Position numbers and translations under genes: made by a program
The notes under the pieces: generated by a model
Database searches by the model: none
Told to the model about the DNA's origin: nothing
Seen by the model: the letters and a program-made list of their open reading frames with translations, nothing else
Shown here: piece after piece, positions 1 through 2,799 of the stretch
Position numbering within the stretch: position 1 is the stretch's first letter
Layout of the letters: every line of letters begins with the position of its first letter
IMG/VR virus record: IMGVR_UViG_2548877011_000017
Length of the DNA: 11,780 nt
Source: a virus
Taxonomy: Duplodnaviria > Heunggongvirae > Uroviricota > Caudoviricetes
Direction: 5' to 3' (one strand)

Positions 1-2799
1 TCAGGCACCGTGACATTTTTTGTACTTTATTCCCGAGCCACAGGGGCATTGTTCATTCCGGCCGACCGCACCAAAAACTTCAGTTAATTTAGTCTTTGCT
101 GCTTTATGGGCAAGCTGTACGATGTAATTTGATTGATTTTGGATTTCTTGACGCTGTACACCTGTGAGGCCTTCGATATAGGGAGCAAGGCGCTGCATTT
201 CGACATCAGCTGCTTTATGCTGACCCGATAGTGCTAATATGACTGCGTATTGGCTTCGAACCTGAATCAGTCGATGTACTAGACCTGCCTCATTGACAAC
301 CGGCAGGACATGTTGCTCCATGACTTCCTTGGCACCGTCGTAATCCTTTATGGCAACAAACTCATCCGCCAGATCTTGGCCCACCCTGACCATGGATTCC
401 GGGGCCATGGCCAGATTGTAGAACTTCATCGAATGAATACGCAGTAATGGTGACAGTTTTCCCTGCGCATCACGAATTCTGGCCAGCAACTCCAGAGCAT
501 CAGCCATATGTTTAAAGTGTTCCTGCATATTTTCGGAATGATTAATAGTTTTCCATAATGCGTCGGCGTTTTTTCCTATGACATCAGCAGGTGTGATACC
601 AAATAAAGAATAGTACCCTTGTATAACATTACAGCTTAATGTTTCAGCATCCTTGAGTTTTTTTAATCTCCAGAGTGCAATGGCATGGTTGTAGTCAAAG
701 ATGCGTTTATGTTCTTCATCTGGGAGTTGGGGGCGGACTTCCTGTGCCAGCTTTTGAACTTCTCGTGCATCATTGCTTTCTGCCGAAAATAACATTCGTT
801 TCATTGCATAGGCCATCTCTTCTTGATAGCCGAACTTGTGCTCCGCAAGTAAAGCTCCCATGATGTTTAACCTCTGAGCAATGTGGTCGGATATTCCGTC
901 TTTAAGCTCAACGAAAACAAGGCCATCCAATGCCCAGAATTTATGAACAGGTCCCAATAAGTCCGATGTTGCAGCACGCTCCAAGCTTGCAAGAATGTCG
1001 ACCGTCACGCCCATCTCATAAAACATTTCTTGGCCTGAGAGTTCGATCAACGTCGTGACATCATTGAGCTTAATATAAAGTTGAGTCAACAACGATAACC
1101 GTTTTGTATTGCGGGTATTATGAAGACTTTCAACTAAAAGGTCTTTCAGCGCTAGTAGCGCTTTGTTCGATATACCCTGATCCATCAGTTCCAGATGTTG
1201 CAGTCCTAGCCCCCTGACAGCATCATGTACCTTCAGGGTCTGGTTTCCATAAATTTCAATAGTGCCAGTAGCGCGCATTTTCCTAATTAAAGAAGCAGCA
1301 CTGCTTGGTGAAATGTTCAGCGAATTGATTAGGAGCGTAGAAATCTCTTCGCGACTCAGCCCTACGTCAGAGAGACTGAACAATGCCAGCGCGCTCTGAA
1401 GTAGTGATTCAAATCCCTGAAATACACGTGACAGAATAATTTCTTGGGCGGTTTCCGCAGTATGGGTTTGTTGCTGGAGTTCAGCACACAGAGCATCGAC
1501 ATTACGCTCATAATCAGAAACGGCGATTTTTGCGGCGCTCTCTACATACAGGGGAAGACCACCAGTGTAAGCCCGTAGCTGCTCGTATCCCATAGCGGTG
1601 GCAAATCCTCCGATATCGTTTACAACGACAGCTACCGTATCGAGATTCCATCCCTGCAGGCCCTCGCGCTGTAGCCCCGTCATGACCTCCAGTTCGCGAA
1701 CGTTTTCGTGAGGCTGGCACAACAGCACAAAACGAATATGTGTAGTTGCATTCAGAACATCCAGTAGATTTTCCGCAGGTACACGATGGGCGTTATCCAG
1801 AACCAGCACCAAGGTGGTACCCTGCTCTTTCAGGTAGGTATCAAAACTCCTAAGAGCCTCAAAACCACTGGCACCGGGGAGCAAAATCCTGCGCAAACCG
1901 TCTTGGTCACGGGCTGTAAATCTAGCAGCCATCTCGCGCACCAGCGTACTGGCCAGAGCTGGACCGGGAAGATCACCGGTGTCGTAATAAGCACAAAGTG
2001 CAGTGGAGTGTAATGCGGCCTGTGCGGCCCAAGCTGTCTTGCCTGCACCTGAGAGTCCACAAAGGATACGGATCCGCTCACCAGATGTGAGAGAAGGTTC
2101 TTCGTTCTGTGGGCGGTACAGTGCTGGTGGTGCAGGAAAGTCCTGTAGCTGAACGATCAACTGTTCAAATAGTTCAGTAAGTTCTTCCGTGAAAAACGTA
2201 TGTTGTCCATTGGTATCGCCTCCGGTGGCGGCAAGCTGAACCAATCCTGCTAACTTCCAAATCAAGGATTCTGGGGACAATAGTGAAAATTTCAGCTTTT
2301 CTGCTTCTGCGATACACCATGTGGCCGCATCAGCCAGAGTACTCCATGCGGGCGGAAGTGCCGGGTGACGTCCAGCTGTCGACTGGGGCCAGACAATAAG
2401 AACATCAGAAGGAAGCTTTTTATCGTCAATCATCTTCTGAAGCAGCGGTCCAGGCGCCTGGTTTACAATAATCACAAAAGAAGCCACCCCTTCGCGGTTT
2501 GCCGAAGTATGCTCATTTCTGAGCTTTACAAATCGCTCCAGAGCCCCCGACACATCGTTGGGCATAATAGGTTTTGAACGGGTTTTAACCTGAATGTAGA
2601 GACGTTCCTGTTTGGATTTCAGCTCAATATCCTCATCAAGCTCGACAGTTACTGAGTCCATAGCTGCCCTCTGCGCCAAAAGTAAGCAGCCTACAGCGTA
2701 AAGATGCTGGTAAAGGAACCCCCGGTGTACCGCTTCGATACGCACCAACTGCACAGGATCCAGTACGTCCAGATTTTGTTTGTTTTCACTTCCCCACAT
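1..2799 (-). CDS. Multidomain NTPase (932 aa): N-terminal PD-(D/E)xK-like nuclease-type domain, central STAND-type P-loop NTPase, helical C-terminal region, terminal SEC-C zinc motif; candidate anti-phage defence protein
   Basis: Complete ORF: ATG at 2799-2797 with AAGGAA 6 nt upstream (plus-strand ttcctt 2806-2811) and TGA at 3-1. Translation shows Walker A GLSGAGKT (nt ~2035-2058), Walker B-like LVLVLDNAH, a following [11 protein letters not shown] strand, an N-terminal GFLYQ...VELDEDIEL...YIQVK pattern (E/D...QxK type nuclease core) and C-terminal [14 protein letters not shown] (nt ~10-51). The CDS call is confident; the function is inferred. Confidence 0.85.
   Translation of the reverse strand: [932 protein letters not shown]

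Follow-up and report, generated by a model that had tools for sequence, protein, structure and literature searches.

The window examined here is a stretch of 11,780 nucleotides from a virus of the Caudoviricetes (IMG/VR record IMGVR_UViG_2548877011_000017); its first 2,799 nucleotides encode, on the minus strand, a protein of 932 amino acids that ends in a SEC-C motif. On every sequence criterion this tail belongs to the SEC-C or SecA-like metal-binding domain (MBD) family, and we regard it as a true SecA-type MBD—a Cys3-His knuckle of about 20 residues that is predicted to fold around Zn2+ or Fe2+. The protein that carries it has, judging from its domains and modelled fold, the build of an Avs-type receptor with a Cap4 effector. 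As for the role of the tail, the likeliest of the readings, to which we give about even odds, is that it docks the receptor to SecB and/or the exit region of the ribosome as in SecA and AscA, a mechanism that we infer. The resources applied to the protein and the window were Pfam, NCBIfam, PADLOC 2.0, PHROG, Rfam, PDB (searched with phmmer), Foldseek, and AlphaFold2. The gene, the tail, and the linker that precedes it are placed as follows:

1..2799, minus strand: SEC-C carrier gene, 932 amino acids (open reading frame list and translation), reading Cap4 nuclease, STAND nucleoside triphosphatase (NTPase), TPR-like sensor, linker, SecA-type MBD
4..66, minus strand: SecA-type MBD (SEC-C motif), residues 912-932 (Pfam match, PDB match, column entropy, codon variation)
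67..111, minus strand: hypervariable linker, residues 897-911 (15 residues), between the last sensor helix and the MBD (column entropy, homologue variation)

The original prediction, made from the letters of the window, had described a CxCxxGxKYKxCHG pattern at the extreme C-terminus of the protein, and the pattern is present there exactly; its description needs correction only in length, since the string quoted has 17 residues and not 16. Window positions 4-60 code for the last 19 residues of the protein. The SEC-C identity that it proposed is borne out by the Pfam profile that it named, SEC-C (PF02810), which matches residues 914-931 at 38.8 bits (E 8e-10; gathering score 20.4) and covers profile positions 1-18 of 19. 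When the last 42 residues are compared with the PDB, the tail matches the SecA zinc-binding domain 1SX0/1SX1 with 16 of 20 residues identical (E 1.4e-7), the other matches being 1TM6, also a SecA zinc-binding domain, and 9L6B, a YchJ C-terminal chain; in a PDB search the Haemophilus influenzae SecA peptide crystallised on SecB (1OZB) is identical to the tail at 16 of 21 positions. With the whole protein or the family profile as the query, tail matches are the only sequence matches found in the PDB.

The anatomy of the tail follows that of SecA closely. The MBD of SecA holds Zn, or by preference Fe, in a CxCx8C[H/C] pattern together with a conserved Ser and Tyr (PMC6620043; 10.1101/613315). The predicted ligands here, C918, C920, C929, and H930, have the same spacing, and S922 and Y926 are the counterparts of SecA S889 and Y893, positions singled out by Cranford-Smith et al. 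(10.1101/613315). A basic surface is formed by R914, K925, K927, and K928, all invariant, which give the knuckle a net charge of about +3. Only one residue separates the motif from the stop codon, which is the TGA read on the minus strand from window positions 1-3 (tca on the plus strand).

Conservation separates the tail sharply from what precedes it. Across 61 homologues, no part of the protein varies more than linker residues 897-911, whose column entropy is about 2.3-3.5 bits, while residues 912-931 are near-invariant at about 0-0.3 bits. The amino acids of the linker differ even among close DNA homologues (n=12), and in distant relatives both its length and its composition vary widely. 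This succession of a variable linker and a near-invariant knuckle mirrors SecA, whose MBD follows a flexible, poorly conserved linker and whose engagement relieves autoinhibition (PMC6620043; 10.1101/613315). Among the same 12 DNA homologues the residues of the motif are invariant and yet are each encoded by 2-4 synonymous codons; selection therefore acts on the protein and not on the DNA. In the AlphaFold2 model, which contains no metal, the chain from residue 910 onwards is undocked and has a predicted local distance difference test score (pLDDT) below 55; with so low a score and no metal, the model carries no information on whether the tail docks.

Two simpler accounts of the last 60 bases were considered and rejected. 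A chance motif is ruled out by the Pfam and PDB E-values, the conservation across the family, and the synonymous codon variation; a DNA-level element, such as a terminator or an RNA, is ruled out by conservation at the level of amino acids with third positions left free. An Rfam search of the window gave no match.

The tail is also a property of the wider family. Among the 120 closest homologues (49-99% identity), which come from Enterobacterales, Vibrio, Shewanella, Pseudomonas, and Betaproteobacteria, 107 end in [VI]GRN[ED]xCPCGSGxK[YF]KKCHGx. The consensus over 126 distinct family tails is [VI]GRN[ED]xCPCGSGxK[YF]K[KR]C[HC]G, in which the cysteines are kept in 100%, the serine in 99%, and Y or F in 100%; the last ligand is H in 71% and C in 28%. 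When 1.84 billion cluster representatives were searched exhaustively with HMMER, 735 relatives were returned. In a set of 115 full-length sequences, made up of 50%-cluster representatives and a few closer homologues with identity down to 29%, the C-terminal knuckle is retained in 74 (about two thirds), with CH and CC endings both present. A second sample—80 loci from GTDB, one genome per species—retains it in 60, with Alpha-, Beta-, and Gammaproteobacteria, Desulfobacterota, and Sporomusa included among the carriers.

Presence and absence of the tail are scattered over a neighbour-joining tree, with at least 31 changes against 33.6 when the labels are shuffled; the tree is poorly resolved at depth, so that the parsimony count of 31 is rough. 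On this comparison, a tail that tracks phylogeny through one gain or one loss is unsupported. Tail-less homologues as products of frameshift or assembly error are ruled out for the two genes examined, both of which have a clean stop and no trace of the motif in any frame within 1.5 kb downstream. The picture is that of an ancient, strongly constrained yet dispensable appendage that has been lost many times. Because it has been lost so cleanly and so often, the tail is an optional accessory that stands outside the core machine.

Several variants of the C-terminus were seen in passing. An Alphaproteobacteria-centred clade keeps part of the linker (…PPPPQWQMP…) without the knuckle, and in this clade an open reading frame (ORF) of 130-190 amino acids without a Pfam match always lies directly downstream in convergent orientation (L042, 6734-7189, minus strand, with equivalents in L043, L046, L048, L050, L052, L053, L055, L057, L059, L061, L063, L065, L068, L069, and L073). 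The same domain is found fused C-terminally after an internal SEC-C motif in P0142 (residues 960-1103; 42% identity over 146 amino acids, E 2e-33)—a putative, Rosetta-stone-like link. In three distant tail-less relatives, P0164, P0238, and P0257, long K/R-rich C-termini such as ...KNRKNKLKEQKIQRRKNRRK replace the knuckle. In a group of betaproteobacterial sequences (L027-L030, L032, L033, L045, L075, L088, and P0121), the knuckle is a variant that ends in ...KKFKKCGC or ...KKCDC where others have ...KKCH/CC, and 4-5 additional residues come after it; the last putative ligand is thereby shifted by one position. The chromosome of Pseudomonas sp. MPB23 carries two full-length copies of the gene at distant sites (L011 and L012), each 71% identical to the window protein.

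Ahead of the linker, the carrier protein consists of three further parts, with approximate boundaries:

2155..2799, minus strand: N-terminal Cap4/DUF4297-type PD-(D/E)xK nuclease effector, about residues 1-215 (Pfam Cap4 above threshold)
1183..2094, minus strand: STAND NTPase module, about residues 236-539, with P-loop nucleotide-binding, helical, and winged-helix domains
112..1182, minus strand: all-helical TPR-like sensor, about residues 540-896

STAND and Avs receptors are the bacterial counterparts of NLRs, and the carrier displays their features in order: an N-terminal effector, a P-loop NTPase with Walker A and B motifs followed by helical and winged-helix domains, and a C-terminal repeat sensor. 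The original prediction of a STAND-like NTPase is thus upheld from several sides. The Pfam P-loop domain AAA_22 matches residues 239-364 above threshold. In the 61-homologue alignment, the invariant positions include nuclease residues D55, D57, E59, Q70, and K72; G248, G251, G253, K254, and T255 of the Walker A sequence GLSGAGKT (248-255); and D335-N336, which close the LVLVLDN at the Walker B position. In the AlphaFold2 model (mean pLDDT 81.9), an alpha/beta nuclease is followed by an NTPase that has helical and winged-helix domains, and then by an extended all-helical repeat region, which closes with helix 880-909. Foldseek neighbours of the model are the STAND-TPR protein PH0952 (6MFV, E 8.5e-13), SeAvs3 with terminase (8DGC, 1.9e-12), and also plant NLR resistosomes; fold matches of the carrier include MalT, PH0952, Apaf-1, and Avs3, with the NTPase fold nearest to MalT and PH0952. 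As a separate observation, the Walker B motif (1792-1797, minus strand) has the invariant Asn N336 where many STAND/AAA+ proteins carry a second acidic residue, which may mean that hydrolysis of the nucleotide is slow or absent.

PADLOC 2.0 models gave no Avs (Avs1-5) match, and the only PADLOC matches to the N-terminus, LmuA, HamA, and DUF4297, are weak. Assignment to a named PADLOC system—Avs1-5, Lamassu, Hachiman, or CBASS—is unsupported, the matches being weak and at the level of single domains. Kinship with SecA, YchJ, or YecA is ruled out, as similarity to these proteins is confined to the tail. No Pfam domains of the SecA motor (DEAD-like nucleotide-binding domains, PPXD, HSD/HWD) were found in the carrier, and SecA chains in the PDB match only residues 879-931. 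The best scores of the NCBIfam models for YchJ (UPF0225) and YecA (UPF0149) are 31.2, 26.4, and 21.5 bits against cut-offs of 140-158, with the matches limited to the last 20-45 residues.

What could a SecA-type tail be doing at the sensor end of such a receptor? Several known proteins provide a basis for comparison. The SecA MBD binds both SecB and 70S ribosomes; the isolated domain co-sediments with ribosomes and crosslinks near uL23 (PMC6620043). To this domain the carrier tail is alike in its 16 of 20 shared residues, CxCx8CH ligands, Ser and Tyr, basic face, position at the C-terminal end, and poorly conserved preceding linker; it differs in that the carrier has no SecA motor and an unrelated body, in that the linker of about 15 residues is much shorter than that of SecA, and in that SecA K891 corresponds to I924. 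AscA/YecA needs its MBD in order to bind SecB (Kd about 150 nM) and 70S ribosomes, and its authors view MBDs as a transferable "evolutionary toolkit" that occurs in at least 18 architectures (10.1101/2020.07.21.215244). Like the carrier, AscA/YecA (UPF0149) and YchJ (UPF0225) bear a portable C-terminal MBD on an unrelated body; the body of the carrier, in contrast to theirs, is a nuclease-NTPase receptor and not a chaperone or transcription factor, and the YchJ tail differs further in ending in CC. For YchJ, the C-terminal cysteines and basic residues have been reported to take part in dimerisation and DNA binding that depend on reactive oxygen species (ROS; PMC13377102).

If the knuckle works as in SecA and AscA/YecA, its basic face (R914, K925, K927, K928) would engage the SecB tetramer on its acidic surface, the 70S ribosome close to the exit tunnel (uL23), or both, and docking would keep the sensor where new, still monomeric phage proteins appear. 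Alternatively, the tail might bring in a host factor as part of the complex, in the way that Avs7 takes up EF-Tu. Binding of a trigger by the TPR sensor would then lead to NTP-dependent oligomerisation and to DNA cleavage by Cap4, in line with other Avs proteins; in this scheme the core mechanism could do without the tail, whose part would be to tune sensitivity or localisation. The conservation of S922 and of Y/F at position 926, along with the occurrence of both CH and CC endings as in SecA, supports the docking reading, as do the matches to SEC-C and SecA, the layout of linker and knuckle, the constraint at the level of the protein, the portability of MBD function in AscA/YecA, the Avs-like build and setting of the carrier, the accessory nature of the tail, and the use of host factors by other STAND receptors. 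Taken together, the analysis suggests, but does not prove, a defence protein that is tethered to the host translation or chaperone machinery.

Several points weigh against docking. It is argued by analogy, for this protein and for its family. SecA K891 is not conserved—I924 in the window protein, and L, K, R, I, or V across the family—and affinity for SecB may therefore differ. A third of the relatives have no tail, which means that it is not required for sensing or killing. The polybasic ends of the three tail-less relatives described above fit any polyanion, be it rRNA, DNA, or membrane, and the mostly proteobacterial taxa fit SecB without discriminating between partners. Finally, the MBD-like segment of YchJ is reported to act in redox-controlled DNA binding, so that MBD-like tails are not always adaptors for SecB or the ribosome (PMC13377102).

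The alternative that survives best, though we consider it unlikely, is non-specific binding of DNA or RNA by the basic zinc knuckle, which would help to deliver activated Cap4 to DNA or would keep the resting protein at the nucleoid. The effector is a predicted DNA nuclease, the charge of the knuckle comes from invariant residues, the K/R-rich ends of P0164, P0238, and P0257 look as if a generic polyanion binder can substitute for it, and the basic C-terminal residues of YchJ are reported to be needed for DNA binding (PMC13377102). Yet the tail, placed at the distal end of the sensor, is separated from the nuclease by about 700 residues, and it keeps the exact SecA MBD consensus, GRN, Ser, and Tyr included—more constraint than a generic DNA-binding tail needs; moreover, Avs3 and Avs7 cleave DNA without such a tail (PMC13581612).

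Hypervariability of the linker in both sequence and length speaks against a second alternative, in which the knuckle would latch onto an acidic patch of its own or a neighbouring protomer, autoinhibiting the protein or stabilising the active oligomer with no host partner involved. The AlphaFold2 model also leaves the tail undocked, tail-less relatives are common, and the knuckle stays at the SecA consensus even where the body is only 29-40% identical and a co-evolving internal site would drift. In favour of such a latch are the position of the tail directly after the last sensor helix, the ability of the SecA C-terminal tail to modulate and autoinhibit its catalytic core (PMC6620043), and the closed state of Avs7, which is held by contacts of the sensor C-lobe with the NTPase and Cap4 domains (PMC13581612). 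On balance we find this account rather unlikely.

The original prediction had offered two roles for the tail, a metal-dependent sensor or an interaction module, and the layout, the conservation, and the published work on SecA and AscA favour the second; nothing in this analysis points specifically to the first. To our knowledge, no phage-linked metal or redox signal has been described for Avs-type proteins, and this counts against a sensor in which Fe/Zn occupancy, oxidation state, or cysteine oxidation during infection or stress would gate activation. STAND receptors already come with a large dedicated sensor of their own, a third of the family manages without the tail, and the sequence does not set the tail apart from ordinary structural MBDs. 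We hold this option improbable, despite the preference of SecA-like MBDs for iron in vivo, the iron or redox regulation suggested for them (PMC6620043; 10.1101/613315), and the reported ROS sensing by the C-terminal cysteines of YchJ (PMC13377102). Least probable of all, and by our estimate very remote, is a basic C-terminus that binds acidic phospholipids and so localises the receptor to the inner membrane, the site of phage DNA entry and of Sec substrate handling: disruption of the SecA metal site also disrupted membrane binding by SecA (10.1101/613315) and the polybasic substitutes of tail-less relatives would suit such a role, but no amphipathic or hydrophobic element lies beside the knuckle and the predicted effector acts on DNA.

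On the docking reading, a well-characterised, 20-residue transferable module of the SecB- and ribosome-binding type would stand at the sensor end of a receptor in about two thirds of its family, in Alpha-, Beta-, and Gammaproteobacteria and beyond, and this raises the question of whether bacterial immune receptors are spatially coupled to translation. An answer would assign a function to one of the many uncharacterised architectures that bear an MBD; should the tail serve only as a structural knuckle, what has been found amounts to routine domain annotation. A broader version—tentative, and in our view doubtful—is that a widespread Avs-like receptor family parks on the ribosome exit site and/or SecB by means of a borrowed SecA tail, either surveying nascent or just-released phage proteins or using SecB as a built-in co-factor. 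If true, the SecA-type MBD would be a general "address tag" gained repeatedly by defence systems (this family, E2-type CBASS accessories, PDC-S12, and Rugutis), one that couples immunity to the host translation and chaperone machinery.

Related systems offer partial precedents. SeAvs3 (8DGC) and SeAvs7 are known Avs receptors with a Cap4 effector; the carrier is much smaller, at 932 amino acids against about 2000 for SeAvs3, and differs from them in having no sequence match to PADLOC Avs models or, beyond the tail, to PDB chains. Some STAND receptors have recently been shown to depend on abundant host factors: Avs7 incorporates EF-Tu and bNACHT25 monitors DnaJ (PMC13581612). The main text of the 2026 survey of prokaryotic STAND proteins (Lee et al.) does not mention SEC-C, zinc, or SecB, and describes a SecA-type tail for no Avs family. 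Among defence proteins, only lactococcal Rugutis is on record as having a SEC-C motif, to which no function was attached (PMC11381338, PMC13064643); its motif differs in being N-terminal, on a body of unknown fold. Among PADLOC profiles, E2, E1-E2 (CBASS-associated), and PDC-S12 match the tail of the carrier only, near their own C-termini, in short alignments with E from 5e-5 to 0.03, and phrog_18195, a PHROG of unknown function, likewise matches only the tail. These matches hint at a SEC-C motif that may recur on defence-associated proteins. Literature searches returned no paper on this family or on the role of a SEC-C motif in STAND proteins or antiphage defence. The motif itself is not new, as NCBI already annotates it automatically—the RefSeq label of the Escherichia coli copies is "SEC-C metal-binding domain-containing protein"—and its discussion on a STAND defence protein was found in none of the papers searched.

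The genomic setting is that of a mobile, putative defence gene. The window covers the early region of a lambdoid prophage of the Rac/Qin-like type, with genes for an integrase, an excisionase-like protein, a 3'-5' exonuclease-domain protein, the dicB region, a repressor-like protein, ydaS/ydaT, and replication. The carrier gene comes after the replication genes, and in one related complete genome the genes that follow it are hokD, DUF968, rusA, and Q; this position, with replication genes on one side and hokD on the other, is a classic moron slot. Elsewhere, homologues adjoin AbiH in Pseudomonas, Halopseudomonas, and others, and Gabija (GajA/GajB), AbiH, and a PIN protein in Vibrio cholerae; AbiJ and Abi_C genes neighbour further homologues, and 54 plasmid records, large plasmids among them, carry the gene. 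The association with defence and mobile elements rests on this handful of contexts and not on a statistical defence score. Neighbour clustering of 89 loci found no partner gene common to the whole family. A two-gene system is unsupported, with AbiH adjacent in only a few loci and the one small ORF restricted to the tail-less clade. The gene behaves as a single-gene, mobile, defence-island-associated system, for which we infer antiphage activity.

In E. coli, the carrier protein resembles RefSeq WP_000264572.1, and the gene is present at 99% identity or above in 16 of 5426 complete genomes; one of these 16 copies is split by ISEc52, of the IS3 family (NZ_OZ546984.1, hit H9). The window is bounded by two stop codons, that of the SEC-C gene (1-3) and that of the integrase gene (10485-11780; stop 11778-11780). 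The 3' flank of the SEC-C gene consequently lies outside the window, and with it any terminator; the attachment site is outside as well.

A few features of the neighbouring genes may be recorded. Just upstream of the SEC-C gene, the overlapping ORFs 3176-3451 and 3043-3294 (3043-3451, minus strand), in different frames, look like a frameshifted DUF977 gene; the equivalent in locus L001 is labelled "DUF977 family protein, frameshifted" in RefSeq. Further along, 5973-6590 and 6594-7211 are tandem copies, about 96% identical and repeating with a period of 621 bp, that span (5973-7211) the DUF1391/ydfB/ydfC-like small ORFs upstream of the dicB-like region; each repeat holds one of a near-identical pair of 78-amino-acid ORFs (6026-6262 and 6647-6883), and the related prophage in L001 has a single copy of the unit. 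Lastly, the 823-amino-acid ORF at 7670-10141, the 3'-5' exonuclease-domain protein of the early-left operon, contains a zinc-ribbon-like CxxC...CxxC motif, CTACGQSGGGNCPDCG (9320-9367, plus strand; residues 551-566), within its long acidic low-complexity middle.

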